From positions 2,324 through 66,323 of IMG/VR virus record IMGVR_UViG_3300037502_002506: a DNA stretch of 64,000 bases; one strand, written 5' to 3'. This document shows, piece by piece, positions 4,278-59,065 of this stretch (position 1 is its first letter; the number at the start of each line of letters is the position of its first letter). The position numbers were made by a program, and so were the translations under genes. This DNA is from a virus. The notes under the pieces were generated by a model. The model was not told where the DNA came from, did not search any database, and saw nothing but the letters and a program-made list of their open reading frames with translations.

Positions 4278-4479
4278 GTTTACAAGAACAGTTTGAGCAA
4301 CATTGTTCTTTGAAGATTTTTAATGCCAAACCATCGTTTTCTGGTCTGCCTAGATCTTCCCAAAACTTTTCTCTACCCATAGCATCTGTTTCTGGTATAA
4401 CTGATGATTCATAGTTAGGGGATATACCACTTTTACACCAATCGAGATTTTGATCCCCCGCATTTTTTAGGTTTTCCAT
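4264..4479 (-). CDS. Hypothetical protein
   Basis: ATG 6 nt after TATAAT (4486-4491, -). Confidence 0.5.
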   Translation of the reverse strand: MENLKNAGDQNLDWCKSGISPNYESSVIPETDAMGREKFWEDLGRPENDGLALKIFKEQCCSNCSCKPTQP

Positions 4480-4649
4480 ATATTGATTATACACTAAATC
4501 TGAAAAATTTTTTAAAAACCATTTTTATGAAAATCTGAATATTTTTCAAAGATGCATGATACATAAATAATAAAAATAAAAGCAAAAAAATAGTGAGCAC
4601 ATAATGAAGGATCAGAGTTATGCGCTCACTACTGGGGCAAGTTTTTATT

Positions 4650-4841
4650 CTATTCCGCACCCTGCCTTTTTCCAAATAGCCACCCATGATGTATTCCAAT
4701 GAGAGGTGCGTCAATATTTACCGCAATACCTACTGGAAGTGATGTTGAAAATGTAGAAATAAAAGTTTCTACTGTTTCTTTGTTAGGGAGATTTATTGTC
4801 TTACTCTCTCCGTTAGTTGTTGTTAGTTTTACTGGTATCAT
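4650..4841 (-). CDS. Hypothetical early protein
   Basis: AGGAG SD, ORF. Confidence 0.6.
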   Translation of the reverse strand: MIPVKLTTTNGESKTINLPNKETVETFISTFSTSLPVGIAVNIDAPLIGIHHGWLFGKRQGAE

Positions 4842-4956
4842 TTTTATTTTCTCCTAATTGTATTTTATCATAATGTGAGCGGTCATAGTTAGCAAGTGTT
4901 CCACCATTAGCAAGGTGAGCCTTTCTGCGTAGTTGTTCTGCTGAGTAGTTAGCCAT
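4813..4956 (-). CDS. Small hypothetical protein (47 aa), below ORF-track cutoff
   Basis: MANYSAEQLRRKAHL...; overlaps neighbours. Confidence 0.5.
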   Translation of the reverse strand: MANYSAEQLRRKAHLANGGTLANYDRSHYDKIQLGENKNDTSKTNNN

Positions 4957-5068
4957 TTGCTACACACTCGCAAGGTTCAATGCTGTAATCGTATCTATCA
5001 CCATAGAATACATAACCTTTTCCGTAGCATGATGAGCATTTGATTTCTATTGTTTTGTATAGTTTCAT
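4949..5068 (-). CDS. Small Zn-finger protein (39 aa)
   Basis: CSSCYGKG...CEC; GAAAGGA SD and own promoter. Confidence 0.65.
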   Translation of the reverse strand: MKLYKTIEIKCSSCYGKGYVFYGDRYDYSIEPCECVANG

Positions 5069-5117
5069 TTATTTATCCTTTCAATAATGTAAGTCTATCA
5101 GGTAGCACTGACAAGGA

Positions 5118-5294
5118 CTAGCCTTGCCAATGTTGAGAGTCATCACCCTCATCTACTCTAACAGTTTCGATAGTGTAGCCCCAACGGACTAGGCTATCTA
5201 GCAAGTCATTTATTTGATACTCGCTAACCATGAGGCGATTTACTACCTCTACTAGTGTGCCGTCTTTTTCGGCTGTGTAACTAAGTGTTTTCAT
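5118..5294 (-). CDS. Small hypothetical protein (58 aa)
   Basis: MKTLSYTAEKDG...; AGAAAGGA SD and promoter. Confidence 0.65.
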   Translation of the reverse strand: MKTLSYTAEKDGTLVEVVNRLMVSEYQINDLLDSLVRWGYTIETVRVDEGDDSQHWQG

Positions 5295-5383
5295 TTAGTT
5301 ATCCTTTCTATTTAGTAATCTTATCCTATACCCTGCCACTGACATTTTGGGGTGTCTGTGGGGTGTGTCCCCTGTGATTTATA

Positions 5384-5503
5384 TCACTTGCAATCGCACA
5401 CTTTGTGCTGCTTGTAGAATTGATGCCCACTCTTTGGGCAAGTTACATATTCACTAGGCTTGACTATCATATAGTCGTTTCTTGATTCGAAAATTGTGTT
5501 CAT
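5384..5503 (-). CDS. Small Cys/His protein (39 aa)
   Basis: MNTIFESRND...CPKSGH...CDCK; AGAAAGGA SD. Confidence 0.6.
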   Translation of the reverse strand: MNTIFESRNDYMIVKPSEYVTCPKSGHQFYKQHKVCDCK

Positions 5504-5588
5504 TTTCTTATCCTTTCTTTATTTTCTAATACTGGAAGTATAACAGAGGGGACTGACATTTTGACCCGTTTTTCGGGCGTGTCGTCCA

Positions 5589-5756
5589 TCAATTTTTGTG
5601 AGTTGCCTCACACTCTGGAGCACACTTAGATGGGAGGCTCCATAGGTACTTGAGGAGAGCCTTTCTCTCAGATAGTGAGATTTCAGGGTGATGTCCCTTG
5701 ACACCTCCATGCTGATACTCATAAACGATTTTTTCTAATGTTTTATTTGATAACAT
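5589..5756 (-). CDS. Small hypothetical protein (55 aa)
   Basis: MLSNKTLEKIVYEYQHGG...; AGAAAGGA SD. Confidence 0.6.
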   Translation of the reverse strand: MLSNKTLEKIVYEYQHGGVKGHHPEISLSERKALLKYLWSLPSKCAPECEATHKN

Positions 5757-5868
5757 AACTAAATATCCTTTCTAAAAATACAATAGTATCCTATCACAAA
5801 AATATCAAAAAGTCAAGTCCTAACACGGCGTGTCGTGTGTGAATTAGGTCACATTTTCTGCCTCGCTG

Positions 5869-5890
5869 CGACACGCCCGACAGCGTCGGC
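5869..5890 (+). repeat. 22-bp repeat CGACACGCCCGACAGCGTCGGC, copy 1
   Basis: Identical to 7417-7438; contains CCGAC-N3-GTCGG palindrome. Confidence 0.95.
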
Positions 5891-5977
5891 AAAATGTCCG
5901 TTTTGTCCACTTACGTACGATGTGATTTTTCTCACAAAAATATTTTACAAAATGTCCGATTTATCCGCATTTTAGAT

Positions 5978-6006
5978 TTGAGATTGTCAGACCCCTGTGC
6001 TAGACT
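5978..6006 (+). promoter_or_regulatory. Sigma-A-like early promoter with TGTCAG spacer element
   Basis: TTGAGA-17-TAGACT, extended -10 TG, TGTCAG 10 nt before -10. Confidence 0.75.
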
Positions 6007-6035
6007 TACAGCATTAGAAAGAAAGGAAAAATGAA

Positions 6036-6218
6036 ATGAAAACTCCAATGTCGCTTAGAGAAATTGAGGAATTAGGTTTCTCTCTTGAAAGTAAAATTTG
6101 CGTGTTCTGCTCTCAAATAGTAGATGAAAGAATTTGCCTAAATTGCGGTGAATATAAAGGTGTAATAAATATCGTCGAAGCCGTAGGATACTACGGAAAA
6201 GAAATTCTCGGATACTAG
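6036..6218 (+). CDS. Small Zn-ribbon protein
   Basis: CVFC...CLNC; AGAAAGGA SD. Confidence 0.65.
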   Translation: MKTPMSLREIEELGFSLESKICVFCSQIVDERICLNCGEYKGVINIVEAVGYYGKEILGY

Positions 6219-6233
6219 AAAGGAAAACCGAAA

Positions 6234-6380
6234 ATGAATTATCAAGAACTAAAAGAGGCTCAAGATAAACAACGAGCCAAAGAAATGGAAAGAATTCGTC
6301 TAATGAATGAAATGTCTTTCGCTAATCGTAATCCTCGCCCTCTAAATAATGCCTATGAGTTAGGGAAATTAGATCGCTAA
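6234..6380 (+). CDS. Small hypothetical protein (48 aa)
   Basis: MNYQELKEAQ...; AGAAAGGA SD. Confidence 0.6.
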   Translation: MNYQELKEAQDKQRAKEMERIRLMNEMSFANRNPRPLNNAYELGKLDR

Positions 6381-6417
6381 ATGTGATATACCCCACAAAA
6401 ATCAACGGCGTGTCGCC

Positions 6418-6446
6418 TTGATTTTGTCAGGGGAAAATGCTAAAAT
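6418..6446 (+). promoter_or_regulatory. Early promoter
   Basis: TTGATT-17-TAAAAT with TGTCAG; GGCGTGTCG and CRP-like box upstream. Confidence 0.75.
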
Positions 6447-6476
6447 TACAGAGTAATAAAATGAAAGAAGGTAAAA

Positions 6477-6674
6477 ATGAAAACTTATTCAATTCCAGAC
6501 CTGCTAATTGGTCAGACTTACTACCCTCGCTCTATGGCGAGAAAATACCAGTATGGTGAAATCAACTTCGCTGAAAAGCGTGAGGATATTTACCTAAGCG
6601 AAGGCTATGAGCCTTTCGCAATTCGTTTCAATGGCAACAAGTGGGCTACTGTTGCGGTTAGGGTGGCTGACTAA
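6477..6674 (+). CDS. Hypothetical early protein
   Basis: SD and promoter. Confidence 0.65.
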   Translation: MKTYSIPDLLIGQTYYPRSMARKYQYGEINFAEKREDIYLSEGYEPFAIRFNGNKWATVAVRVAD

Positions 6675-6790
6675 TGAAACTTCATGAATTTCAAGAATTA
6701 GTAAAAGCGCAACGCAAAGCGCAAGAATTGACAAACTTAGAGAAAATCGCTAAAATTGTATCAACAACGAAAGAAAAGGAAAATAACTAA
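6674..6790 (+). CDS. Small hypothetical protein (38 aa)
   Basis: TAATG coupling on both sides. Confidence 0.55.
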   Translation: MKLHEFQELVKAQRKAQELTNLEKIAKIVSTTKEKENN

Positions 6791-7047
6791 TGACTAACGC
6801 AACTTACACAGATTTCCCCTTCACAGTAAAGGGAATCAACTTCATCTCACGAGTTTATTCTCACTCAGAAATGCTAAAAACAATTCTTAGCCTGCCTGCG
6901 GGAATTTTTGAAACCATGAATCAGGAAGCAGTTTCCGAAATTATTGGTGACCCTTCATTGCTAACTAATGATGAACTATTGACAGAACTAGACAGAGTAA
7001 ATGAAGGCGGAACTCATGCCTTTATTTTGTTAGGAGAAAATAACTAA
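6790..7047 (+). CDS. Hypothetical early protein
   Basis: SD, TAATG coupling. Confidence 0.65.
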   Translation: MTNATYTDFPFTVKGINFISRVYSHSEMLKTILSLPAGIFETMNQEAVSEIIGDPSLLTNDELLTELDRVNEGGTHAFILLGENN

Positions 7048-7238
7048 TGACACTTTCTAAAACACACTTCAAGGCTATTGCTTCAATCCTCGCAGATGTA
7101 AAAGATGAAATTCATCCGCAAGTCTATGAGGATTTAGTAGAAGGCTTCTCAACTTATTTCGGAACTAAAAACGAATTATTTGATAAAGCAAAATTCGAAA
7201 CCGCTTGCGGTGTTGATGAGTTAGGAATTATCGCATGA
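7047..7238 (+). CDS. Hypothetical early protein
   Basis: KTHFKAIA...FDKAKFETAC, a common small phage protein pattern. Confidence 0.65.
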   Translation: MTLSKTHFKAIASILADVKDEIHPQVYEDLVEGFSTYFGTKNELFDKAKFETACGVDELGIIA

Positions 7239-7416
7239 GCAGATTTCTGACTACACTTGTTCAAATTTTTCTCATCGCTTCTATTTATTACACTATAAAA
7301 CTTGCGACAAAAGAAAACTAAATTCAAAACATGCGAGGTCTGCGGTAGAATTTTTGTCGCAGATCTAAAATGTTTTTTGTGCGCTGCTAAACAGTAGTTC
7401 AACTTTCAACTAATTC

Positions 7417-7438
7417 CGACACGCCCGACAGCGTCGGC
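7417..7438 (+). repeat. 22-bp repeat, copy 2
   Basis: Identical to 5869-5890. Confidence 0.95.
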
Positions 7439-7441
7439 CAC

Positions 7442-7461
7442 TTATCCACAGGATATCCACA
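7442..7461 (+). promoter_or_regulatory. Tandem DnaA boxes
   Basis: TTATCCACA 7442-7450 and ATATCCACA 7453-7461. Confidence 0.6.
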
Positions 7462-7569
7462 ATGTGAATTACGTTACAATAAAAAAAATTCCCGAATTAC
7501 GGCGTGTCGATTTGCTTTCCAGAAATATTTTTGATAGGCTTGAAGCCTGAAAATGAAAGAAGGTAAAAA

Positions 7570-7725
7570 ATGAAAAATATTCTAATCTCATATGTAATCG
7601 ATGCTGATACGGATAAAGAAGCGATTAGTCATCTAAAGGCTTTGCTTTATTTGTTGCCACAAGACTATGCGAAAAACTTTCAAGTTTTTGATATTTGTGA
7701 TGTAGATAACAGCGTTTTGGCTTGA
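7570..7725 (+). CDS. Small hypothetical protein (51 aa)
   Basis: MKNILISYVID...; SD and promoter. Confidence 0.55.
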   Translation: MKNILISYVIDADTDKEAISHLKALLYLLPQDYAKNFQVFDICDVDNSVLA

Positions 7726-7750
7726 AAATGTCAGTAGCCTATGATAGGCT
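7722..7750 (+). promoter_or_regulatory. Early promoter
   Basis: TTGAAA-17-TAGGCT with TGTCAG. Confidence 0.75.
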
Positions 7751-7777
7751 CAGAGTATTGAAAGAAAGGAAATAAAA

Positions 7778-7990
7778 ATGGATAAATTGGAATACGCACT
7801 ACGACAGATTGCTAATTGTAATCTATGCGAAGGCAAGGGTGTCTTTTACTTTGGTAGCGGAGACTACTATGACTTTGAGGATTGCGAGTGTAATACTTAT
7901 GGAATTATCTTTGATGAAACAGGCGAGGTAATTTTTGATAATGGACTACTAAGTGAGCCTGAACTACTAATGAGCGGAGAAGCACGATAA
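7778..7990 (+). CDS. Small Zn-finger protein
   Basis: CNLCEGKG...CEC; resembles 4949..5068. Confidence 0.65.
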   Translation: MDKLEYALRQIANCNLCEGKGVFYFGSGDYYDFEDCECNTYGIIFDETGEVIFDNGLLSEPELLMSGEAR

Positions 7991-8289
7991 TGGGAAGCAA
8001 CATGGCTAACGAAATGGCAAGCGGTGTATTAGATGATTTAGGAATACACCTAGACATTGAAACTCAGATAGGAATTCACTTATCTGCTAATCACTACCCT
8101 CCCGTACCCTCCAGCATGGTCAAGCCTTGTATTGAGGCTATTGACGCAGTAAATGATTTGGGACTATGGGACGCAGACATAGAATTGCCTGAAGGAATAT
8201 CGTGGCGAGGTAGCAATTATGCCCCTGCCCATGCTATTATTGAGGCACACCACCTAGAGGCTTGGCTTATTGAAAGAGAGGAATACTAA
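7990..8289 (+). CDS. Hypothetical early protein
   Basis: HLSANHYPPVP...HHL; coupled to upstream gene. Confidence 0.7.
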   Translation: MGSNMANEMASGVLDDLGIHLDIETQIGIHLSANHYPPVPSSMVKPCIEAIDAVNDLGLWDADIELPEGISWRGSNYAPAHAIIEAHHLEAWLIEREEY

Positions 8290-8290
8290 A

Positions 8291-8443
8291 ATGAATGGAT
8301 ATAAATTCAGAACTGCGCTTGCTAAAATCGCACCTGATTATCAGATAGATGAGGATAATGACGGACAGATAATTATCTACACTAATCTAAAAGATGACGG
8401 AAATGACAACTATATTGAATTTGACCTAGATGAGGAGAACTAA
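8291..8443 (+). CDS. Small acidic protein (50 aa)
   Basis: MNGYKFRTAL...; GAGG SD. Confidence 0.55.
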   Translation: MNGYKFRTALAKIAPDYQIDEDNDGQIIIYTNLKDDGNDNYIEFDLDEEN

Positions 8444-8445
8444 AA

Positions 8446-8655
8446 ATGGAATACACTTATGCGCTAACTACTTCCTATGACGGGGAACTAGTAAATACCC
8501 TGCGGGTTTCAGATTTACTTGAAGCCGTAAATGCGTGGGATAAATGCGTAGACTTTGGCGATGCTAAAGAATACGCAACCTATAACTTATCAGACCCACT
8601 AGGTAAAATGTATACAAAAACTTTTTACCGAAATGGTGAAGTGAGCATTCGCTAA
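8446..8655 (+). CDS. Hypothetical early protein
   Basis: GAGGAG SD. Confidence 0.65.
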   Translation: MEYTYALTTSYDGELVNTLRVSDLLEAVNAWDKCVDFGDAKEYATYNLSDPLGKMYTKTFYRNGEVSIR

Positions 8656-8883
8656 ATGTCTGATACAATGATGAGCATGGAATTGCGATTCGCTGATTAT
8701 CTTCTGCCAAACCAATTGGCGGAAGGTGATCTCATCAAACTTGAAAACCAGTATCTAACTGTAAAAGAAATTAGCGAAACTAAAGAAGGATACAATTTAG
8801 TTTTAGCAGATGACTTTGATGATGAAGAAGAATATTTTATTCTTGATGATACAAAAATTGAATGGTATGTTTTTGTAGAATAA
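8656..8883 (+). CDS. Hypothetical acidic protein
   Basis: ORF adjacent to upstream stop. Confidence 0.6.
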   Translation: MSDTMMSMELRFADYLLPNQLAEGDLIKLENQYLTVKEISETKEGYNLVLADDFDDEEEYFILDDTKIEWYVFVE

Positions 8884-9138
8884 AATCCCGAAAAAGCGGG
8901 CCGACCAATTTATACCAAATGTCCGTTTTACGTAGTTTACGTAGAATCTCCCAAAATTTGTGATTTTTATTTGTTTGTGATATTATTATTTTATGTTTAG
9001 AAAAAGCAAAGAAGAGTTGAGACGCATTCAAGAGTTGCGTAGATCCAATGCAGCCTCTGCCGTAAATAGCAAGCGTGTTTATACTAGACAAAGCAATAAA
9101 AAAATGATAGACTTATCAATGAAAGAAAGGGATGAGCA

Positions 9139-9858
9139 ATGAAACTAAAACGCTCTAATGATAGGAAGGTGGCCAATGCAGTCTCCCCAAATGGGAAAAC
9201 GCCAACAATTGCTAACACTTTTGGACTACCTAGTGGTAAGGCTTACTCATGTCCTGGTGAGACCTCTGTATGCGCTAAAGTCTGCTACGCAGGAAAACTC
9301 GAAAAAATCTACAAAGGAGTAAGAGATACTCTATTACACAATTGGAATTTGCTAAAAGACGCAGACCATGACACAATGGAAAATCTATTGCAAGAAATGA
9401 TAGATGATTTCAAAAAAGATTGTGATAAGAAAGACGCCCCTAAACTATTCCGTATCCACTGGGATGGCGATTTCTTTAGCAAGGAATACGCATTCGCATG
9501 GAAACACGTAATCCTAAATAATCCTGATGTTCAATTCTGGGTTTATACTCGTGTAAAGATTGCTGCAGAAATGCTAAAGAATATTGATAATCTTAGTTTA
9601 TATTTCTCTGCAGATAGTGAGAATATCAAAACAGCCGTAGAACTAAAACAAAATCATGGTGTACGCATGGCATACCTTGCACAGAATTTTGTAGCGGGTC
9701 AAGAAAAAATGAAAGAACTAATTTCTAAGCCTGGTGCTAAATGTCCTGAAAATGCAAAACGTATTCCTCTAATCTCTACTAATGGCAGCGCATGCGTTAG
9801 TTGTGGATTGTGTGTTTATAATAAAGCAGATATTGTATTTAGTGCGAGTAAAAAATAA
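9139..9858 (+). CDS. Gp88-like (radical-SAM-related) protein
   Basis: CPGETSVCAKVCYA, RIHWDGDF, C-terminal CVSCGLC. Confidence 0.7.
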   Translation: MKLKRSNDRKVANAVSPNGKTPTIANTFGLPSGKAYSCPGETSVCAKVCYAGKLEKIYKGVRDTLLHNWNLLKDADHDTMENLLQEMIDDFKKDCDKKDAPKLFRIHWDGDFFSKEYAFAWKHVILNNPDVQFWVYTRVKIAAEMLKNIDNLSLYFSADSENIKTAVELKQNHGVRMAYLAQNFVAGQEKMKELISKPGAKCPENAKRIPLISTNGSACVSCGLCVYNKADIVFSASKK

Positions 9859-10081
9859 AATGCGTGTAGAGTATTTATTGATAGCATGGCTAATACTTTA
9901 CTTTTTTATTTCTCAATAGATCCCCCGCAAAAAGTGGTCGGCCCCCAAAACCTATTTTGTCAAGTTACGACTATGTGATTATGTTCACAAAAAAAATACC
10001 CCCAAAACCCTCCCCAAATTGTATTTTTGGTATTTTTCTGCTAAACTTATACTAAGACCCAAACAGAAAGGAAAAACGCAA

Positions 10082-10249
10082 ATGACACTAGGCGGATACA
10101 CTTATCAGGTAGGAGATTTATTTACTACCAGCAAGACAGGTGTGACAGGTCGTATTGAGAAGTTCGTTCCAATGCGTCAAAATGTCACTAAGGTCATGCT
10201 TCGCTTGGCAAATAATCAAACTAGATTTGCTATGGTGAAAACACACTAA
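10082..10249 (+). CDS. Small SH3/KOW-like protein
   Basis: YQVGD...SKTGVTGRI; paralog of next gene. Confidence 0.6.
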   Translation: MTLGGYTYQVGDLFTTSKTGVTGRIEKFVPMRQNVTKVMLRLANNQTRFAMVKTH

Positions 10250-10348
10250 TCTCAAAATGTGAGAAATATCAGGTTTCGGCTTGACATTATCTCTCAAAAA
10301 TGTAATAATAATACAAGTAATAAAAACCAACTAACAAAGGAGAAAGAA

Positions 10349-10516
10349 ATGGCAGTAGCAACAGCAACTTACAAGGTAGGCGACACCTACACCTCACAGA
10401 AGTCAAAGGTGACAGGCGTTATTACTGAAATCAAGCCAAACACAGACGGAACAAGCGTTCGTGTAAAACTTGATGTCAATGGCTCACCTCGCTGGACAAC
10501 TTGGACAGCAAAGTAA
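10349..10516 (+). CDS. Small SH3/KOW-like protein
   Basis: YKVGD...SKVTGVI; AAGGAG SD. Confidence 0.65.
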   Translation: MAVATATYKVGDTYTSQKSKVTGVITEIKPNTDGTSVRVKLDVNGSPRWTTWTAK

Positions 10517-10534
10517 TTCCTAAATAACAGGAAA

Positions 10535-10563
10535 AGTCCTGAGCATGACTACTAAAACTGCTC
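10535..10563 (+). ncRNA. Conserved H-type pseudoknot element, copy 1
   Basis: AGTC-CTGAGCAT-GACT-ACTAAAAC-TGCTC. Confidence 0.7.
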
Positions 10564-10628
10564 ACTTGATTTCTAGCAGTAAAAATGCTAGACTATAAAT
10601 AACAACCCACTAAGAAAGGATAAAGTAA

Positions 10629-11048
10629 ATGGCACGACAGAAAGCAATTAGCGTGAAAATCGCTACAACTAAAGTCATCAAGGCTTTAGAAACAAAACTA
10701 GCACAAATCCAAAAGGATAAGGCTAGTCAGAAATCAAACGAGGAAAAGTTTGATAAGGCTCTAAAGGCTTACAACAAAGAGGTAGCAAAGTTAGCACTAG
10801 ATAAAATCTCTAAGGCAACTGACCTATCTGCTCACAAGAGATACAATGGAGAAGTCCAAGTATCCTTCGCTCTACCTGCTGGAACTATTGACCTACCTAC
10901 TGAACCTGAAAGAGAGTTTCAGAGTTTCCATGAGTGGCAATACAAGGAAATGATAGAGGAAATTGAGAACGCAATTCGTATTCTCAAGATGACAGATGAG
11001 GAAGTAGTTTCTACTTCTACTTACAACGCTATCGCTAGATACTTGTAA
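10629..11048 (+). CDS. Hypothetical coiled-coil protein
   Basis: AGAAAGGA SD, promoter. Confidence 0.75.
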   Translation: MARQKAISVKIATTKVIKALETKLAQIQKDKASQKSNEEKFDKALKAYNKEVAKLALDKISKATDLSAHKRYNGEVQVSFALPAGTIDLPTEPEREFQSFHEWQYKEMIEEIENAIRILKMTDEEVVSTSTYNAIARYL

Positions 11049-11052
11049 AATT

Positions 11053-11076
11053 GAGAGGGGTGTAAAAGCCCCTCTC
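11053..11076 (+). terminator. Hairpin after gene stop, possible terminator
   Basis: GAGAGGGG/CCCCTCTC stem; weak U-tract. Confidence 0.5.
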
Positions 11077-11125
11077 TCTATCCCCTGCGTTCCACGCTAT
11101 TTATAGCAAGTGTCCCCTGGGGATC

Positions 11126-11151
11126 GTCCTGAGCATGACACTAAACTGCTC
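11126..11151 (+). ncRNA. Pseudoknot element, copy 2
   Basis: GTC-CTGAGCAT-GAC-ACTAAAC-TGCTC. Confidence 0.7.
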
Positions 11152-11161
11152 CACCTCCAAC

Positions 11162-11191
11162 TTGACAAATGTCAGACCCCAATGCTAAACT
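11162..11191 (+). promoter_or_regulatory. Early promoter
   Basis: TTGACA-18-TAAACT with TGTCAG. Confidence 0.8.
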
Positions 11192-11217
11192 TAGTATTAG
11201 AAAGAAAGGAAACTAAA

Positions 11218-11490
11218 ATGATAGCAACCGCTATAGCACTACAACAAGCAACACAAGAAGCAGTTCATGATGAAATGACTATGGACATGGCTTCTCACTT
11301 ATTTCACGCAAGAAATGAAATGTCAGATAATGATTTCGCAAGAGCATTATTTGAATATTCTGCTCTGCTCTCATCACTAACAACAACTCTTGTAACCCAT
11401 GTATTATTGACAGAGGAACAAGTAAATGCTATGATTAGTGATATCAAAGAATTTGATGAACTTGGAAAGGATGTAACAAATGGAAACTAA
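11218..11490 (+). CDS. Hypothetical protein
   Basis: Start reassigned behind AGAAAGGA. Confidence 0.7.
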   Translation: MIATAIALQQATQEAVHDEMTMDMASHLFHARNEMSDNDFARALFEYSALLSSLTTTLVTHVLLTEEQVNAMISDIKEFDELGKDVTNGN

Positions 11491-11890
11491 TGTAATTCAT
11501 GCGACGGAGGAGTATCTTCGTAATCGAATCACAGAACTAGAGGAGCGAGTAAAGACTGTAGAAGAGTCTCATGCTCGTGTTGTACAGCGGGATTTTAGTA
11601 CATCTGCTGCACTGAATGCAATGTCAGAGTCGCTACGTGACTGGACCGTGGAGAACCTAGAAAATGGCTCTATCAATGATGAGCAGGCCTTGGAACTGGC
11701 GGAGATTGGTTCGTTTGAACTAACAAAAGAAGTAGAGGCTGAAGTCTCTGTAACTTACTACATAACATTGAATGTGCCTGCAGGAGAAAATGCTGAAGAC
11801 ATAATCAATGATATTGATTTCGACGCAATTGTATATGACACGGACCATGTTACACATGTTTCATCTAGTGTCGACAGTGTTGACATCTAA
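11480..11890 (+). CDS. Hypothetical acidic protein
   Basis: GAAAGGA SD, overlap with upstream gene. Confidence 0.7.
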   Translation: METNVIHATEEYLRNRITELEERVKTVEESHARVVQRDFSTSAALNAMSESLRDWTVENLENGSINDEQALELAEIGSFELTKEVEAEVSVTYYITLNVPAGENAEDIINDIDFDAIVYDTDHVTHVSSSVDSVDI

Positions 11891-11896
11891 ATAAAT

Positions 11897-11999
11897 TTGC
11901 GTGGTTCATGAAAGGCCACGCAATGTGCACGGATCTCTTCTTTCATCCTTTCTTTCAAAGAGACCGTGAGGGACCTGAGCACGTCCACGTAAACTGCTC
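11897..11999 (+). ncRNA. Candidate small RNA: hairpin + anti-SD hairpin + pseudoknot copy 3
   Basis: Stems 11897-11923 and 11928-11968 (loop CTTTCATCCTTTCTTTCA); GGAC-CTGAGCAC-GTCC-ACGTAAAC-TGCTC at 11971-11999. Confidence 0.65.
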
Positions 12000-12081
12000 A
12001 CCTCCAAAAAAGTGGTCGGCCCGTTTTGTCCTAAAATGTCCGATTTACGAAGTTACGATCAAAACGCCCGAATCCCAGGAT

Positions 12082-12110
12082 TTGCTTTTGTCAGACCGCT
12101 GTGCTAAACT
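12082..12110 (+). promoter_or_regulatory. Early promoter
   Basis: TTGCTT-17-TAAACT with TGTCAG. Confidence 0.75.
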
Positions 12111-12143
12111 TTAGATAATAAACAAAACAGAAAGGAATAAAAA

Positions 12144-13145
12144 ATGGCTCATGAATTAGAATCAGAAAAGTCATTCGCTAGTTTCCGTGAACCTGCTTGG
12201 CATGGTTTAGGAACCGTATTTACAGAGGAAGTTTCCACACGGGAAATGTTGTCTCTTGCTAATCTCCAGAATTGGAATGTTAGATTGGAAGATGTTGTGA
12301 TTCCAGAAAATCTCACATCAGATAAATCTTATCAGTATGTTGTGCGTACTAATCCGTTTGATAAAAATCAGACAGATGTTCTTGGTGTTGTAGGTGAGCG
12401 TTATGTTCCACTACAAAATGAAGACCTATTCACTTTTGGTGATGCGATTCTTGATGGCGGTGGTCGTTGGGAAACAGCAGGTTCTCTAAAAGGTGGTCGT
12501 GTAGTGTTTGGCTCTCTTGCGTTAGAGCGTGAGACAGTTCTTGACCCTAATGGCGTTGCTGATGTTGTCAAGACTTATCTTCTTGTCAATACATCACATG
12601 ACGGTTCAGTTGCTATTCAAGCAAGTGTGACCCCCGTTCGTGTTGTGTGTGCTAATACTCTTGCCGTTGCTCTTGGTAGAGGTAAGCGTGGTATAAAGCA
12701 ATCATTCAAGATTCGTCACACGCAATCTGCTGATGGTAAAGTTCAACAGGCTCGTGAGGCTCTAGGTGTTGCTAATGCATACATGGATGAGTTTTCTAAA
12801 ATGGCTCAGTTGATGATTCAAAAAGAAATCACAGCGCAACAGTTCAATGACATTGTTTTGCTTGCGTATCCAAAGCCTGATGAGACTAAGAAGGGTGCAT
12901 TGAAAAAGTGGGAAAATAAAATTGACACTATCAATGACATCTACACAGGTCAATTCAATGGCATGATTGCCAATACTGCTTGGGGTGCTTGGAATGCACT
13001 CACAGAAAGAATCGATTGGTATCGTGGAGGTAAGCGTGGTCTTACTGAATCAATCCTAATGGGTTCAAGTGGTTTTGACCCTGCTATCACAGCAGAAAAA
13101 AATCGTTTGCTACAAGTTGTGAATTCAACTTTAGAATTAGTATAA
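12144..13145 (+). CDS. DUF932 / phage-plasmid-like protein
   Basis: PAWHGLG, WETAGSL, SHDGS, TPVRVVCANT. Confidence 0.85.
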   Translation: MAHELESEKSFASFREPAWHGLGTVFTEEVSTREMLSLANLQNWNVRLEDVVIPENLTSDKSYQYVVRTNPFDKNQTDVLGVVGERYVPLQNEDLFTFGDAILDGGGRWETAGSLKGGRVVFGSLALERETVLDPNGVADVVKTYLLVNTSHDGSVAIQASVTPVRVVCANTLAVALGRGKRGIKQSFKIRHTQSADGKVQQAREALGVANAYMDEFSKMAQLMIQKEITAQQFNDIVLLAYPKPDETKKGALKKWENKIDTINDIYTGQFNGMIANTAWGAWNALTERIDWYRGGKRGLTESILMGSSGFDPAITAEKNRLLQVVNSTLELV

Positions 13146-13154
13146 ACTAATTCA

Positions 13155-13181
13155 ACTCCTGAGCATGAGTATAAACTGCTC
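13155..13181 (+). ncRNA. Pseudoknot element, copy 4
   Basis: ACTC-CTGAGCAT-GAGT-ATAAAC-TGCTC. Confidence 0.7.
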
Positions 13182-13348
13182 TATTTTTTATTTGACAAAA
13201 GATCAAAAAAGTGGCCGACTAAAAATATCATCAAAAACTTTTATTACGTAACCGACTAAAAATGTCATGAATTTTTTTCATTACGTACAACTTGCTTTTT
13301 CCCCTAGATTTTGGTAGAATAATAATAGAACCCATGAAAGGAAATATA

Positions 13349-13510
13349 ATGCTAGGATATACAACAGAGCAGGTAGAAAATATGGCTACTACTTTAAACT
13401 ATTCTATTCATCATCATATTAATAATACTGTATTTGCTGATGAGGATAAGAAGGTATTGAGAGATCTAGAGGATTTCTTATGGGGATTATTGGCAGAGGG
13501 ACGTGTTTGA
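13349..13510 (+). CDS. Small hypothetical protein
   Basis: GAAAGGA SD before MLGYT. Confidence 0.6.
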   Translation: MLGYTTEQVENMATTLNYSIHHHINNTVFADEDKKVLRDLEDFLWGLLAEGRV

Positions 13511-13564
13511 CATACCCTGCCTAATTTGCTAGAATAATACAAGAACCCACAGAAAGGACCCATA

Positions 13565-14311
13565 ATGCCAAATTGGTGTTACAACTATCTAACTATCGAG
13601 GGCAATGAGCAAGACATTGCTAAAGTTAAAGCACAACTTAACCAACCATTTACTAAAATGCATGATACATTCAATATGGAGACAGGTCAAATGGAGTTCA
13701 CAGAGACCTCATACTCTAACCCTGTATTTGCATTCCATAATATATATAATCACACACAGGCAGGTATATCTGATGAGGATTATATGAAGCAACCTGACCA
13801 TACCCTGCCAATTCAAGAGGCTATGATGTTTAAGGGTAATCATTGGTACGACTTTAATGTTCGTGAATGGGGAACCAAATGGGATGTGGCTGTCCGTGAC
13901 GGAGAAGACTATCCTGAAACTGAGTTAAATACAGAGGACGACTGGTCAACTAGTTTGACATATAGGTTTAATACAGCATGGTCACCCCCTGTTCCTGCTA
14001 TTGAGAAGTTATCTCTTCAATATCCTAATCTAGAATTTACCTTGTCTTATGAAGAAGAGACTGGGTGGGGTGGAGAAGTTCTATTCGTGGACGGAAGCGG
14101 AAGCGAAATAGAATCCTATGAAAACAAGTGTAGAGATTGTGATTCAGTCAATACATTACAGTATTGTGATAACGATTGTGGAGAAATCTGTGATTCTTGT
14201 CACTATCTAGGCGAGGCAGACCTAGAGTGTGTTGCAGAGTGTGATGAGCACAAGATATACTTAGACGACGAACACGTACCCAACTACAGAATGGACCAAC
14301 CAAATGTCTAA
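13565..14311 (+). CDS. DUF1281/YubB ferredoxin-like protein with Cys-rich tail
   Basis: MPNWC, WGTKWD, FNTAWSPP. Confidence 0.75.
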   Translation: MPNWCYNYLTIEGNEQDIAKVKAQLNQPFTKMHDTFNMETGQMEFTETSYSNPVFAFHNIYNHTQAGISDEDYMKQPDHTLPIQEAMMFKGNHWYDFNVREWGTKWDVAVRDGEDYPETELNTEDDWSTSLTYRFNTAWSPPVPAIEKLSLQYPNLEFTLSYEEETGWGGEVLFVDGSGSEIESYENKCRDCDSVNTLQYCDNDCGEICDSCHYLGEADLECVAECDEHKIYLDDEHVPNYRMDQPNV

Positions 14312-14510
14312 TTACTTATTAGAGTATATGAAGATACATCTGGTCTCTATTGAACAAGACCAATCAGACGTATCAGAACAAATGGAATCGCTTGACCCTA
14401 ACTCTAAAGACTATGCTGAGTTAGACTTTGAATATAACTGGTTGGCAGGTCAGATTATTGCTACCCGCCACTTTATACAGATTGGAGAAGAGCATGCAAA
14501 CAAACTTTAA
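14304..14510 (+). CDS. Hypothetical protein
   Basis: Overlapping operon ORF. Confidence 0.6.
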   Translation: MSNYLLEYMKIHLVSIEQDQSDVSEQMESLDPNSKDYAELDFEYNWLAGQIIATRHFIQIGEEHANKL

Positions 14511-14778
14511 TCCAGATTACAATCTAGAGGAGCACATACAGTTAGCAGTAGATATGCGTGTGCCTGCTTTAGATATCATGCATGGTGAACTTAAGAACCT
14601 AATGTATGAGGCTGAACTACAACTTGAGGAAGCACGTCGCATAGAACAAGATAATCATTACTCAGACGCTATGCAGTCCATGGAACGTACATATGCTGAG
14701 GGATATATTGACGCTCTTGTACATCTTTATAATTTAACTTATCAGTTATCATTTGCTATCGCAGAACGGGAGGAGTAA
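14494..14778 (+). CDS. Hypothetical protein
   Basis: GGAG SD before MQTNF. Confidence 0.6.
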   Translation: MQTNFNPDYNLEEHIQLAVDMRVPALDIMHGELKNLMYEAELQLEEARRIEQDNHYSDAMQSMERTYAEGYIDALVHLYNLTYQLSFAIAEREE

Positions 14779-14926
14779 TGGAGATCTTGATCGGACTATT
14801 TCTAGTATTAATGGTACTAGGAGCAGCAGCAGGAGGGTATACAAATGAGCCAAAACTATGAGCAGTTGACATTAGACCTACAATTTGATACACTAGAAGA
14901 AAACCCTACTACCGAAAGGACCCACC

Positions 14927-15347: not shown

Positions 15348-15382
15348 ACCTCTTATTTGATACAATGACTATAAGGAGAACT

Positions 15383-46192: not shown

Positions 46193-46207
46193 ATATTTAT
46201 TGTACTC

Positions 46208-47984: not shown

Positions 47985-48001
47985 ATCTGTATTATACCAA
48001 G

Positions 48002-54382: not shown

Positions 54383-55414
54383 TTATTGATTATGATCCTT
54401 TTTATACCAAGAATATGCTAATTCAGCCCAAGCATACTGATATGCAGTCCCCTCATGTATGCCATCTCTTGCGTTGATTGTAAAATTATCATTTTTATTT
54501 AACAATATGTACTCAGCCATTAAATCCTGAGTTAATTTTATATCATCTTTAGTCCTAGAAATGTTTTTAAATGAATCCAAGTCTGTTTGATCTAAAAACC
54601 AATTTGTGCTTAAGTTATGAGAGAATATATATAATTCTATATTATTTGCTTTACAAAATGTTTCTAGCATCATTAAATATTGATACACATATATAAATCT
54701 TTCAGCATGTATTAAGTGTTGCGTTTCTGGAGGCTTTCGTTCCCCTGCCCATACAGGTCTTGCTGCTATGTTATCATCTTCTGCATTTAGCGGAACTGTA
54801 TGATGCCAACTAGGAAATGTTTTTAAAAAATTAAATTCTTTTGGAAAATGAAGAACACGATCTTTGTAAATAGGCATTGAGTAAAATCTTGATAAATTGG
54901 GTAAATTTATAAATATTGTATCTGGCTTTGAATAAGTATCAATATATTTAAAGATATCCGCAACAATTTCAAAAGTTCCTATTCCCGTAATTGCTAAATT
55001 ATAATAACCAGAAACTTTTTCTTTTTCTTTTATTTTATTATAAACTATCCATGGCCAAATTTCATTATTGTAAAGTCCAACACCATAAGAATTTGAACAT
55101 CCAGAAAACAATATGTGCTTTCCTTCATGTTCTTTTTTAAATTCATCAGATCTAAATAAAAGTGAATTAACCTGAAGGGGGTCTGGAGAATCTACATAAT
55201 CTAAAATCCATGGTTGGTGTTCTGCTAGGTGCTCCAAAGTTTGATATGTTAGTCTATTTTGAGAAACGCTTCTAATCTCATCTATGCTTTTATTAAATGA
55301 AAATACTAGTTCTGGAAAAGAAAATCCTACTAAATTTTTATTGAGTGGATTTTCTACTCTTTCTCCGATGTTTACATCTACTTCAGGGATATTGTGATAT
55401 TTTAAGGTTTTCAT
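54383..55414 (-). CDS. SGNH-hydrolase-like protein
   Basis: GCSNSYG...DGIHEG. Confidence 0.5.
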   Translation of the reverse strand: MKTLKYHNIPEVDVNIGERVENPLNKNLVGFSFPELVFSFNKSIDEIRSVSQNRLTYQTLEHLAEHQPWILDYVDSPDPLQVNSLLFRSDEFKKEHEGKHILFSGCSNSYGVGLYNNEIWPWIVYNKIKEKEKVSGYYNLAITGIGTFEIVADIFKYIDTYSKPDTIFINLPNLSRFYSMPIYKDRVLHFPKEFNFLKTFPSWHHTVPLNAEDDNIAARPVWAGERKPPETQHLIHAERFIYVYQYLMMLETFCKANNIELYIFSHNLSTNWFLDQTDLDSFKNISRTKDDIKLTQDLMAEYILLNKNDNFTINARDGIHEGTAYQYAWAELAYSWYKKDHNQ

Positions 55415-55426
55415 AATATTATTATA

Positions 55427-55762
55427 TCACTCCCCGTTTTTTGCTTTTGCTATTTTTAATAATACTAAATATCCTATTAAGTCATCAATGTCGTTATCAC
55501 CTGGGTAATCTGTACCCTTCATAAGCCTATTTAATTTATCATCAATACGGACATGGAGTTGCTCTCTTGGTCCCGCCTTTGAAAATATACGGACAGGATC
55601 TAGGGCTGAATTGCCGTAAGCGATATTTTTCTTAACAAGCATATGTGCAATTTCATGGCAGGTAGACAAAATTTCTTTACCTGCTTCTGTACCTACTGTC
55701 AATAAGGATAAGTCATCGCATTCAAAATGATCTCTATCTGGAAATACTGGTTCTAAACTCAT
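55427..55762 (-). CDS. DUF1599-like nucleotide-modification-associated protein
   Basis: KKNIAYG, RIDDKLNR, DLIGY. Confidence 0.7.
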   Translation of the reverse strand: MSLEPVFPDRDHFECDDLSLLTVGTEAGKEILSTCHEIAHMLVKKNIAYGNSALDPVRIFSKAGPREQLHVRIDDKLNRLMKGTDYPGDNDIDDLIGYLVLLKIAKAKNGE

Positions 55763-56489: not shown

Positions 56490-56760
56490 TGAGTAGCCTT
56501 TTTATTTGCTTTAGTGTTTTATTAACTTCAGAAGGATTGATTAAGCAGTTATTGCACAAAGGCTCATCGTTATAAATTGATAAACTTGTTTTGCACATTT
56601 TGCAAATCCTAACCTTTCCTTTTCTTTTTTGTCTTCGTTGAAGAATATATCTTTGTGCTATTTTTTCTTTTGTTGCTTCAGTTCTACATATTTCTGAACA
56701 ATATATTTGATAAGAAACACTTGCGCTAAATAATTTATCGCACCAGTTACAGTTCTTCAT
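56482..56760 (-). CDS. Zn-finger protein
   Basis: Four Cys pairs. Confidence 0.65.
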   Translation of the reverse strand: MKNCNWCDKLFSASVSYQIYCSEICRTEATKEKIAQRYILQRRQKRKGKVRICKMCKTSLSIYNDEPLCNNCLINPSEVNKTLKQIKRLLNE

Positions 56761-57604
56761 CTTTAAGCAACTCCAGAGGTTTAATTTTAATTACCCCTGT
56801 CTCTGCTTCAGCACATGCCTTTTGAATTGGACACACCTTACATATTTTAGAATTAGATCTGTATGGCTTCTGTGGAAGTTGCCGATCTTTCCAACTACTA
56901 TATGTTTCTCGCATCCAATCAAATGCCTGGTCTACCCACCGACGGTAATGATCGTTTACTACTACTGGCAACGTCAATAACTCATGATTATTTTTATTTT
57001 CATAAATCATTACACCTTTGCCAATTTTCCAAACCTTCATATAAATAAGCAATTGCATAAGATGACCCATCTTAGGCTTTCTACTATTCTTTTTATATTC
57101 AAACCCTTCATTAGTAATTGTTTTGATTTCTCCAATTACACGTTCATCGTTAATACTAAGCATAACATCACCATATCCATCAAATGGCGGGTCTTCTGTT
57201 TTAACCCTAAACTCCATTGCTGGATGAGTTTGCTTATTATATTTTCTTGGAAGCGGATCCATCTCCATTGTCTCATCTAACAATCCCGATGACTCAATAG
57301 CCTCTTGAATTCTTCCATGACCAAGAGTTCCGTTTGTTCTGTTTGCTACGCCATACGCATCAGAGTTATCATAAAATACTGCCCCATCGAATGCTAGATA
57401 CCAATATCTTGGACATTCCCCAGCACCATACGTTAATCCAGAAGCAGAAAAATTACTCTTTTTACTAAACTTAGGTTTAGTTTTAGCCATGTATCCAGAT
57501 TCAATCTTTTCAATTAACCCCTCAATAAAACCATGGTCTTCGTTATTTTTTGAAACTTTTTTATCATTTTTTAACATTACTTGTTGCAGTAAATTTTTTG
57601 TCAT
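56747..57604 (-). CDS. Cas4-like PD-(D/E)XK exonuclease
   Basis: CPRYW, GDV, EIKT, QLLIY, C-terminal CKVCPIQKAC. Confidence 0.8.
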   Translation of the reverse strand: MTKNLLQQVMLKNDKKVSKNNEDHGFIEGLIEKIESGYMAKTKPKFSKKSNFSASGLTYGAGECPRYWYLAFDGAVFYDNSDAYGVANRTNGTLGHGRIQEAIESSGLLDETMEMDPLPRKYNKQTHPAMEFRVKTEDPPFDGYGDVMLSINDERVIGEIKTITNEGFEYKKNSRKPKMGHLMQLLIYMKVWKIGKGVMIYENKNNHELLTLPVVVNDHYRRWVDQAFDWMRETYSSWKDRQLPQKPYRSNSKICKVCPIQKACAEAETGVIKIKPLELLKDEEL

Positions 57605-57638
57605 TGTTATCCTTTGGTTAACTTAATTATAGCAGATA

Positions 57639-57947
57639 TCATCTGGTTATATATTTAAGAGCAGACACTAAATTATTAATAGACTCCGCTGCAGTATAGT
57701 ATAAATTCTTTTTACCCCTGTCTGACTTGTCTACATTTGCCATCCATGTAGCCTTTAAAGACATTTTAGAGGCTATTGCTTGAAGTCTAACTATTTCTAG
57801 TGTAGCCACTTGCATGGGAATATCTGGCTTTAAAATAATCTTTGCTATTGTTGTTAAGGCAGTGGTAAACTCTTCATCTTTCATGTATTCAGCAATTTCT
57901 ACAAGACCATTTATTTGCTCAAGTGTTGTTTTTTGTTCATCAAGCAT
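57639..57947 (-). CDS. Hypothetical protein
   Basis: Operon ORF. Confidence 0.7.
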   Translation of the reverse strand: MLDEQKTTLEQINGLVEIAEYMKDEEFTTALTTIAKIILKPDIPMQVATLEIVRLQAIASKMSLKATWMANVDKSDRGKKNLYYTAAESINNLVSALKYITR

Positions 57948-58758
57948 TGTTATTTTTTCTTTCTATAGCATCTTGATATCTTGCCTCTAATTCTCTTATT
58001 TTAGCCAGCCGTATTAATCCATCTTCTTTTTCTAATTTTTCCATTTTTTCTTGCCATGCATTATTATATTCATCAAATTTACTTTTTTCTTTCCACTCTT
58101 GGAATCTAATTTTTCTGGCTTCTGGGTCACGTGCTGGAATATTTAATTCATCAAAATCTTTTTGAACTGCAAAGTGTGCTGTCCAAACCTCACAGTTATC
58201 GTCTTCTTTTAATAGAATAGGATCTCTCCAATGAATTGTACCTGCCCCCCAGAAAAGCAATAAATCTCCATATTCCAGATCAAAACGATAAAGTTCTCCA
58301 TTAACATCGATAACTATTGGCCAACTAATATTAGCATCTAGTTGATAATCTATTGTTAATTTAGTAAAATAATTATCTGAATCAAAATGTGGTGGAAGTT
58401 TGGGTGATATTGCAAGATCTGTTTCATTTCCTCTGTTTTCAAATGCATTTGGGTTATGCTTTTTGTTGTAAGAAAGATAACTGTTGTGTGTCATTTTAAC
58501 TTCTTCTCCAACAAAATCAGACGCAAAATCTTCTATTTTTTTTAACAATTTACCAGCAACTTTTAGTTCTATTTGTTCTCTAGCAAGTTCTGGAAGAACT
58601 AGAGGGGAGTAAAAACCACCTGGTGGCAAACCTTTTCCATGATTTATTAATTCTTTTATTTCTTTAACCTCGTCATCAGAAAAAAATCCTTTTATAACAT
58701 GGGGGATGACATCTTCATATTGTCCGAATTTTTTTGGTTTATATGCTGCGTTTATCAT
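57940..58758 (-). CDS. 2OG-Fe(II) hydroxylase-like protein
   Basis: LPPHFD, WPI, GDLLLFWG, HWR. Confidence 0.7.
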   Translation of the reverse strand: MINAAYKPKKFGQYEDVIPHVIKGFFSDDEVKEIKELINHGKGLPPGGFYSPLVLPELAREQIELKVAGKLLKKIEDFASDFVGEEVKMTHNSYLSYNKKHNPNAFENRGNETDLAISPKLPPHFDSDNYFTKLTIDYQLDANISWPIVIDVNGELYRFDLEYGDLLLFWGAGTIHWRDPILLKEDDNCEVWTAHFAVQKDFDELNIPARDPEARKIRFQEWKEKSKFDEYNNAWQEKMEKLEKEDGLIRLAKIRELEARYQDAIERKNNNA

Positions 58759-58765
58759 ATATATA

Positions 58766-59065
58766 TTATACCACTTTCCTAGAATCCAAACTTATCAATT
58801 CTTCTAATATAGAAAACTCAAGTACTGCCAATCTTACCTTCTTATTATCTTTTCCAATAACAACTATAATCGCAGGATCATTGTTATTTTTTATTGCATC
58901 GGTAACTGCTTTGGCCCAGACATCCTGATTGAGAGTAAAAGATTTTGATACCTCCTTAAAATCTATAGTAAAATTATTCCAGGTTGCGTCACCCTTTTTA
59001 ATTCCTCTACCAGAATTTTTATGTTGCTTGGCACCTATTCTTTTGCTTTCACTTTTTTCACTCAT
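58766..59065 (-). CDS. Hjc-like PD-(D/E)XK resolvase/nuclease
   Basis: NSGRG..KGD...IDFKE. Confidence 0.6.
   Translation of the reverse strand: MSEKSESKRIGAKQHKNSGRGIKKGDATWNNFTIDFKEVSKSFTLNQDVWAKAVTDAIKNNNDPAIIVVIGKDNKKVRLAVLEFSILEELISLDSRKVV

Follow-up and report, generated by a model that had tools for sequence, protein, structure and literature searches.

Extended −10 hexamers placed six nucleotides before start codons in a low-GC phage genome: predicted leaderless genes beside Shine–Dalgarno-led ones

The window analysed here is a 64,000-nucleotide (nt) stretch of DNA, bases 2324–66323 of the 66.3-kb IMG/VR virus record IMGVR_UViG_3300037502_002506, for which CheckV gives a completeness estimate of 60%. 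In this window (GC content ∼35%), a set of ATG start codons stands directly behind promoter-like −10 hexamers, mostly at a gap of exactly 6 nt, whilst other genes have Shine–Dalgarno (SD) sites. This geometry is real, statistically robust and conserved among related phages. Its probable explanation is that the hexamers belong to extended −10 promoters which would start transcription at the A of the ATG, giving leaderless mRNAs.

RESULTS

A −10 hexamer at a fixed distance from the start codon

A preliminary description of this DNA had listed 13 ATGs as lying 6–7 nt after a −10 hexamer, often TGn-extended. Read on its own strand, each of the 13 has such a hexamer (Table 1; sites are named by the position of the ATG), the gap being 6 nt in 11 cases and 7 nt in two. 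TGn precedes the hexamer in 8 of the 13, and the other five have GTG or GAG, with G at −13. At nine of these sites no possible start codon precedes the ATG within its open reading frame (ORF). Further sites of the same kind are found at 16003 (+), 19215 (+) and 17522 (−) and, with a gap of 8 nt, at 2523 (−) and 18959 (+).

A strict −10 was defined as a hexamer with T and A at its first two positions, T at its last and at least a 5/6 match to TATAAT, and was counted before any ATG. At a gap of 6 nt there are 32 such sites in the window, compared with 19.8 ± 4.6 in 100 dinucleotide shuffles (z = 2.6). Because the genome is AT-rich, loose hexamers are common, at ∼20 per gap by chance. However, ORFs of at least 50 amino acids (aa) are opened by 15 of the 32 gap-6 ATGs, compared with 1–7 of the 16–28 ATGs at control gaps. 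The extended motif TGNTAWAAT-N6-ATG occurs 8 times against 0.29 expected, a number reached by none of 100 shuffles, whereas the N5 version occurs once (0.31 expected) and the N7 version not at all (0.30 expected). Thus, of the 28 TGNTAWAAT sites in the window, eight have an ATG exactly 6 nt downstream; six of these ATGs open ORFs of at least 58 aa, one opens a 39-aa DUF6757 protein and one an 8-codon mini-ORF.

The 6 nt between hexamer and ATG leave no room for an SD. SD strength was scored as the duplex of the 16S 3′ tail with positions −21 to −3, on which scale 8.4% of random positions reach −7 kcal/mol. By hand count, only 2/17 leaderless-type starts (those with the hexamer geometry) reach −7 kcal/mol, compared with 49/100 other starts. 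In both of these the G-rich tract is further upstream than the hexamer and does not belong to the transcript as predicted.

The geometry is replicated and conserved in relatives

Three whole relatives were compared with the window: G001 (112.9 kb, with terminal repeats; DnaE 75%), G002 (123.5 kb; DnaE 95%) and G003 (86.9 kb; DnaE 79%). The gap-6 spike is present in each. Pooling the four genomes, a strict −10 is found at a gap of 6 nt before 44 of 967 first-start ORFs of at least 60 aa; the expectation, from 2450 internal in-frame ATGs, is ∼6, and gaps of 5 and 7 nt give 7 and 5. The tally of −10-to-ATG distances suggested in the preliminary description therefore peaks exactly at 6. Three properties for which the 44 sites had not been selected are in keeping with promoters: TGn precedes the hexamer in 31, the start codon is ATG in 38, compared with 550 of all 967 first starts, and a −35 of 5/6 or better is present in only five of them.

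Single families could be followed further. TATAAT-N6-ATG is kept in 15/15 loci of the 58758 family that hold the start and its upstream DNA (49–97% aa identity). In the 17620 family GTGTATAAT-N6-ATG is kept in 15 of the 17 loci examined (43–100%), with one lacking it and one not resolved, and both the N6 spacer and the protein N-terminus vary among loci. All eight relatives of 27288 at 53–72% identity keep GTATAAT-N6-ATG, one of them as TAGAAT-N7, and the ATG column is invariant whilst its flanks vary; six more distant relatives are without the geometry. TATAAT-N6-ATG is kept in five of eight loci related to 55414 (64–92%), and the remaining three, at 36%, lack it.

Orthologues in the whole relatives give a similar picture for other sites. 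The G002 orthologues of 30243 (75% aa) and 47984 (86% aa) have TGC-TATAAT-N6-ATG and TATAAT-N6-ATG, respectively. The orthologue of 46192 in G003 (81% aa) has TTGACA..TATAAT-N6-ATG and that in G001 has TACAAT-N5-ATG. For 2523 the N8 gap is kept in G002, and the G001 orthologue has TGG-TATAAT-N6-ATG; the geometry is likewise kept in the G001–G003 orthologues of 38738. The orthologues of 35499 (60% aa in G001), of denV and of the carbamoyltransferase gene are SD-led in G001–G003. No relatives of the 4479 and 16731 ORFs were found in these three genomes, and the sole relative of the 29210 ORF is 97% identical.

The denV gene, encoding a pyrimidine dimer glycosylase, was traced through 80 loci with 55 distinct upstream regions. 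A −10 of 4/6 or better stands at gap 6 in 12 of the 55, often with TTGACA 17 nt further upstream and with unrelated spacers. The remaining homologues either depend on an SD, with stop and start codons overlapping as TAATG, or carry a promoter of their own and a GAAAGG leader. One gene, denV, is thus found in three interchangeable expression modules.

SD-led genes and a putative early block

The class tallies in this section are hand counts on home-made gene calls. The 5–16 kb block of small ORFs (Table 1), which we infer to be early, has a different start arrangement. Its genes have a TTGACA-N17/18-TGnTA[AG][AGC][AC]T promoter and a leader of ∼18–27 nt with a GAAAGGA-type SD, and the repeat families D1–D5, D11 and D16 belong to these start-upstream repeats; the promoter at 11162–11191 is an example. 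In the putative early region (4.6–15.9 kb), 24 of 29 starts have a strong SD (−7 kcal/mol or better), three a weak one and two none, and not one is leaderless-type, so that the earlier statement that the 4.6–15.8 kb ORFs are mostly SD-led holds. Of 17 GAAAGGA copies in the window, 16 fall at 5.07–14.92 kb, and 15 of these are oriented like the local coding strand; for GAAAGGA-N7-ATG there are 6 matches where 0.25 would be expected. AGGAGG has 15 occurrences, two in the early block and the rest spread over the other modules.

Elsewhere in the window, 17 of 88 starts are leaderless-type, 25 have a strong SD, 13 a weak one and 33 neither; many of this last class overlap the upstream gene. The chance of 0/29 given 17/117 leaderless-type starts is ∼0.005 (hypergeometric, computed by hand), in agreement with the contrast drawn originally between early genes and the rest. 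That contrast had been phrased as one between early and 'accessory' genes, a label that is only partly right: leaderless-type starts also head the endolysin (47984), terminase (55414) and Cas4-like/RuvC (58758) blocks, and 71 of the 88 non-early genes are not leaderless-type. Retention of SDs by ahpC and Hsp20, also noted there, was seen again. A third layout, with TATAAT 15–16 nt before the ATG, is present at 798, 4841, 15383, 24327, 25547, 40143 and 40256; the leader would then be ∼9–10 nt long and begin with an AGGAG-type SD.

The idea that each cargo gene forms a self-contained cassette survives in part. Promoter and start are fused and the denV modules are interchangeable, but several of the promoters lie inside or abut upstream genes and there is no excess of terminators. 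Terminator-like sites number 14 against 7.9 expected at 4–17.8 kb; there is no enrichment at 16.5–36.4 kb (10 against 9.6 expected), so that insulated cassettes are not supported beyond the early block.

At the left end of the early block, 5057–5518 (−) holds three tandem units, 226 and 209 nt apart, each ending GAAAGGATAA-N-AAATG. These are very small putative early genes that run leftward in an array and diverge from the rightward early block.

Affiliation of the phage

A WhiB-family protein (Table 1) is encoded in the window and in all three of G001–G003. The WhiB (Wbl) family is described as confined to Actinobacteria and their phages (PMC13013590). DnaE shows 55% full-length identity to that of Streptomyces phage BillNye and relatives, and the gene order SSB–DnaE–RecA–resolvase–Cas4-like–RuvC–terminase is shared with BillNye. 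Because of these three features an actinobacterial host is likely, and the link to Actinobacteria that had been drawn from the leaderless geometry fits the genome despite its 35% GC. The virus is most likely, to judge from its genes, a low-GC aquatic/freshwater actinophage whose distant relatives are the large Stanwilliamsviridae siphophages of Streptomyces. A search of the phage database by DNA gave no near match. The top AhpC relatives, 88–92% identical, are on 3–7.5 kb contigs (L207–L209) binned into Beijerinckiaceae and Acidimicrobiaceae metagenome-assembled genomes, which belong to unrelated phyla; these contigs are probably phage DNA mis-binned into cellular genomes. The next tier of AhpC proteins, 60–71% identical, comes from varied taxa, mostly Betaproteobacteria.

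Proposed mechanism and the evidence against it

Promoters of the extended −10 type have TG at −15/−14, before the hexamer, and a weak or absent −35. In the proposed mechanism, host RNA polymerase with its primary sigma factor would read ∼17 genes from such promoters, in which TATAAT follows TGn or GnG and a −35 box is mostly missing. RNA polymerase would be expected to start 7 nt past the hexamer, with a purine as the initiating nucleotide. Since the A of the ATG sits at this position, AUG would form the 5′ end of the mRNA, and translation by the host ribosome would proceed without SD contact, a routine event in Actinobacteria. Other genes use SD sites, stop/start coupling or neither, and the putative early block uses its separate repeated module of a −35-dependent promoter, a weaker −10 and a short GAAAGGA-SD leader. 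Both the transcription start at the A and the leaderless translation of these mRNAs are what we infer from the geometry.

Two freshwater metatranscriptome runs, both from one sample, each contained 7% of the sampled words. RNA contigs on 16501–36500 comprised 14 and 12 pieces, 8 and 7 of them at ≥99% identity and mostly of ∼105–330 nt; they are scattered over 22240–35394, where they match, with few or no differences, parts of speD, the trypsin-like gene, ahpC/CMD, Hsp20 and a 2OG oxygenase gene.

Several observations count against this mechanism or limit how firmly it can be held. The RNA contigs showed no pile-up of ends, although sparse assembled contigs cannot show 5′ ends and DNA may be present in the libraries. 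At 4/17 leaderless-type starts an SD-like tract (−6.8 to −11.9 kcal/mol) lies at least 13 nt upstream, beyond the hexamer. The start at 29210 is ambiguous and may instead be the SD-led ATG at 29198, because an AGGAGG stands 7 nt upstream of the latter, inside the 3′ end of tRNA-Thr. Some leaderless-type promoters lie 7–17 nt past a co-directional gene that has no terminator, and several are inside or abut the upstream gene, so these genes may also be read on longer, SD-less transcripts. Both start classes are inflated, because start refinement partly used the same signals that were later tallied. In BillNye (50 kb examined) enrichment of the motif is weak and not specific to N6, with 5 sites against 1.95 expected at N6, 2 against 2.12 at N5 and 5 against 1.85 at N7. 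Finally, the search of genome contigs with AhpC gave no host signal.

Alternative explanations

The hexamers could be AT-rich junction sequence, reflecting stop-codon context or an unstructured region, with the genes translated from polycistronic mRNA by SD-independent initiation or re-initiation. The closeness of several sites to a co-directional gene fits this, as do the two sites at which the upstream stop is part of the motif (its TAA lies inside TATAAT at 58758, and its TGA supplies the TGn at 55414) and the number of TATAAT-like hexamers expected by chance. We nevertheless regard it as unlikely. The spike is at exactly 6 nt and not spread over several distances, and TGn precedes the hexamer in 31/44 sites; 33256, 46192 and many homologues of denV have a consensus −35 at a 17-nt spacing; the upstream stop is inside the hexamer in only 1/13 sites; and 16731, 17620/17522 and 30243/30283 are divergent or intergenic, without an upstream gene to couple to.

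A second possibility retains the promoters and adds a timing switch that is transcriptional and not translational, in which the phage WhiB, acting on sigma region 4, would turn down the −35-dependent early genes whilst the extended −10 leaderless genes stay on. Wbl proteins are reported to bind sigma region 4 (PMC13013590). In this reading the early genes depend on a consensus −35 (TTGACA), with a weak −10 and a GAAAGGA leader, and the leaderless and minimal-leader genes on a −35-independent extended −10. If true, abundant freshwater phages would have made a WhiB protein into a sigma-appropriation switch, but we think this quite unlikely.

Thirdly, the starts might be mis-called, the true start codons lying elsewhere in the ORFs behind ordinary SDs. 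In-frame upstream start codons exist at 4 of the 13 sites, including 4479, 17620 and 27288; 29198 has a good SD, and the ATG at 30168, downstream of 30243, has an SD-like site. Relatives back the listed ATG for 17620 and 27288, however, the listed ATG being invariant in the 27288 family, and homologue matches start at residue 1 for denV, 55414, 58758 and 17620. With nine of the 13 ATGs also the first possible start of their ORFs, mis-calling is a very unlikely general explanation.

The least probable proposal, a part of the preliminary description that is not supported, is a switch in which phage anti-SD hairpin RNAs tie up SD sites or imitate the tail of 16S, so that SD-led translation is silenced whilst leaderless genes stay on: leaderless-type and SD-led genes do coexist unevenly (0/29 and 17/88), and two small early-block elements do have CCTCC beside a short hairpin, but the candidate RNAs amount to just three copies of one inverted repeat directly upstream of early −35 boxes, Rfam found no family besides tRNA, and the repeats look more like operators than RNAs because they fold no better than shuffles (z of −0.9, −1.2 and +0.4). 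A general SD block would moreover hit the phage's own genes, since terminase, RecA, Hsp20, tail-module and other non-early genes carry strong SDs. Extended −10 promoters giving leaderless mRNAs thus remain our preferred reading.

Gene content and individual sites

The window encodes DnaE, RecA, SSB, a Cas4-like exonuclease, RuvC, terminase, a CHAP endolysin and collagen-like tail fibre proteins. Auxiliary genes include those for a tryptophan halogenase, a carbamoyltransferase, SpeD, two APS-kinase-like proteins, a sulfotransferase, AhpC, CMD, Hsp20, DenV and SNase. A trypsin-like gene is also present. At 17.6–44.6 kb there are eight 2OG-Fe(II) oxygenase Pfam hits, two APS-kinase/cytidylyltransferase-like and one or two sulfotransferase-like proteins, together with the halogenase and the carbamoyltransferase. 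The load of paralogous oxygenases is unusual, and the whole set suggests a phage-encoded modification pathway.

Table 1. Leaderless-type start sites and other features of the window
Feature	ATG	Position	Strand	Context
GTG-TATAAT-N6-ATG	4479	4477..4494	−	71-aa ORF; in-frame GTG 5 codons upstream
TGA-TATACT-N6-ATG	16731	16716..16733	+	58-aa ORF; first start codon of ORF
GTG-TATAAT-N6-ATG	17620	17605..17622	+	2OG-Fe(II) oxygenase, 221 aa
GTG-TATAAT-N6-ATG	27288	27273..27290	+	directly past tRNA-Asp; 189-aa ORF
TGA-TATGAT-N7-ATG	29210	29194..29212	+	past tRNA-Thr; 199-aa ORF, weak sulfotransferase match
TGG-TATACT-N7-ATG	30243	30241..30259	−	93-aa ORF, divergent from 30283
TGG-TAAAAT-N6-ATG	30283	30268..30285	+	59-aa ORF, then methyltransferase
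TTGACT-N17-TATAAT-N6-ATG	33256	33254..33291	−	denV (165 aa); 11/12 consensus matches
TGG-TAAAAT-N6-ATG	35499	35497..35514	−	2OG-Fe(II) oxygenase, 200 aa
TTGACA-N17-TACAAT-N6-ATG	46192	46190..46227	−	67-aa ORF; promoter within end of upstream gene
TGG-TATAAT-N6-ATG	47984	47982..47999	−	61-aa ORF heading CHAP endolysin block
TGA-TATAAT-N6-ATG	55414	55412..55429	−	343-aa ORF heading block that runs into terminase
TGG-TATAAT-N6-ATG	58758	58756..58773	−	272-aa ORF heading Cas4-like exonuclease/RuvC block
TGT-TATAAT-N6-ATG (additional)	16003	15988..16005	+	111-aa ORF
TGC-TATAAT-N6-ATG (additional)	19215	19200..19217	+	39-aa DUF6757 protein, 30.7 bits (cut-off 27)
TATAAT-N6-ATG (additional)	17522	17520..17537	−	105-aa ORF, divergent from 17620
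TGG-TATAAT-N8-ATG (additional)	2523	2521..2540	−	128-aa ORF
Putative early block		5066..15842	both	small ORFs, leftward 5.07–5.8 kb, rightward 6.0–15.8 kb
Inverted repeat GAGCA-N11-TGCTC, 3 copies		11127–11169, 11975–12005, 13157–13199	+	two followed by CCTCC
WhiB-family protein, 95 aa		37484..37771	−	46.9 bits (cut-off 23.6); actinobacterial-host marker

Seven tRNA genes at 23972–29193 (+) are interspersed with the auxiliary genes. TATAAT boxes lie directly after a tRNA (27273, tRNA-Asp) or before one (27871–27899, tRNA-Glu), and because of this adjacency the tRNAs and cargo genes may share short transcription units. A candidate at 27906 (+) was rejected as probably the promoter of tRNA-Glu and not a gene start.

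Three other candidates were set aside. At 48205 (−) the TATAAT sits inside the SD spacer of ATG 48211. The site at 41705 (−) (TATATT, N7) is weak and its orthologues are SD-led. TGG-TATAAT-N6-ATG at 32066–32083 (−), with its ATG at 32068, leads into an ORF of just 8 codons, situated within the 49-nt leader of the SD-led 32019 gene, and is either a leaderless mini-ORF or a chance ATG.

Immediately upstream of the 16731 −10, at 16691–16711 (+), there are two direct copies of TGTGGATAAC, which we take to resemble a DnaA box. A perfect TTGACA-N17-TATAAT is present at 16470–16498. These elements, which separate the early block from the block of tRNA and auxiliary genes, could mark an origin or have a regulatory role. 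A GC-rich box, TTCTATTTTCCGCCGAACTTTAAA (17578–17602, +), occupies the −35 place ahead of the 17620 promoter. The box is kept in many relatives of the 17620 oxygenase despite diverged coding sequence, and it is thus a candidate regulator binding site.

Just upstream of the 55414 gene is a 51-aa ORF (55759–55914, −). Its helix-turn-helix match, which is weak and below threshold (17.8 bits; cut-off 25.7), includes sigma-70 region 4, and BillNye has a small helix-turn-helix protein at the corresponding place.

DISCUSSION

The pattern described here matches the known dual promoter/SD start pattern of Actinobacteria; it involves no new mechanism and changes nothing in the knowledge of leaderless initiation. 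Its consequences are practical. In these abundant lake phages, gene callers that expect an SD will misplace starts: of the 13 listed, four have longer in-frame alternatives, and the 39-aa DUF6757 gene fell under the ORF length threshold that we used. A promoter-at-start model is therefore advised for low-GC aquatic actinophages. The start grammar also offers an indirect host clue for uncultured phages. A promoter joined to its ATG is the smallest possible expression module, and denV, which has a leaderless promoter in some relatives, an SD and stop/start coupling in others and a promoter with a GAAAGGA leader in yet others, illustrates how cargo genes can be re-plugged. Our literature searches, which did not extend to supplements, turned up no description of leaderless starts across whole genomes of freshwater or low-GC actinophages.

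The lambda cI mRNA from PRM starts at AUG, as predicted for the genes here, although only one regulatory gene is concerned and leaderless mRNAs are rare in its host. Closer at hand is BillNye, which in addition to the shared gene order has a tRNA field, WhiB and TGnTAnnnT at N6 or N7 at three annotated gene starts, at positions 51374, 71906 and 72437 of its record. It is, however, a soil phage of a high-GC host, whereas the window has many aquatic-type auxiliary genes.

In cluster K mycobacteriophages, the start-associated sequence (SAS) and extended SAS (ESAS) are a conserved repeat directly upstream of some start codons, in some cases joined to a promoter. Gene 90 of the cluster K phage Adephagia is predicted to be leaderless (PMC11373665). 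Adephagia is like the present phage in being an actinophage with a predicted leaderless gene, and the SAS resembles the early GAAAGGA leader module, in kind only; the difference is that here promoter and SD leader repeats occur in one region and leaderless-type genes are far more numerous. [quoted passage not shown] From what is described there, the likeness is close, with a promoter inside an upstream co-directional gene and a start, here predicted, at the A of the ATG; but recX is a single chromosomal case, whereas the window has several such junctions (46192, 47984, 55414 and 58758), with predicted starts and, in two of them, the upstream gene's stop codon within the motif.

The −10 hexamer of high-GC hosts is a loose TANNNT, and the start codon of leaderless mRNAs is AUG or, in mycobacteria, also GUG. 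Lineages that translate such mRNAs efficiently are the Actinobacteria and Deinococcus-Thermus. The nearest general counterpart is group C of the GeneMarkS-2 classification, in which, as outlined by its authors, a Pribnow box stands 6–8 nt before leaderless first-in-operon starts and other genes have an SD; the group takes in 773 of 859 actinobacterial genomes, or 90% (PMC6028130). On that outline the phage genome is of the same kind, with a Pribnow box near the start for its predicted leaderless genes and SDs for others in the same genome, but it shows the pattern at 35% GC, with a near-perfect, TGn-preceded TATAAT and with many of the promoters internal to gene arrays.

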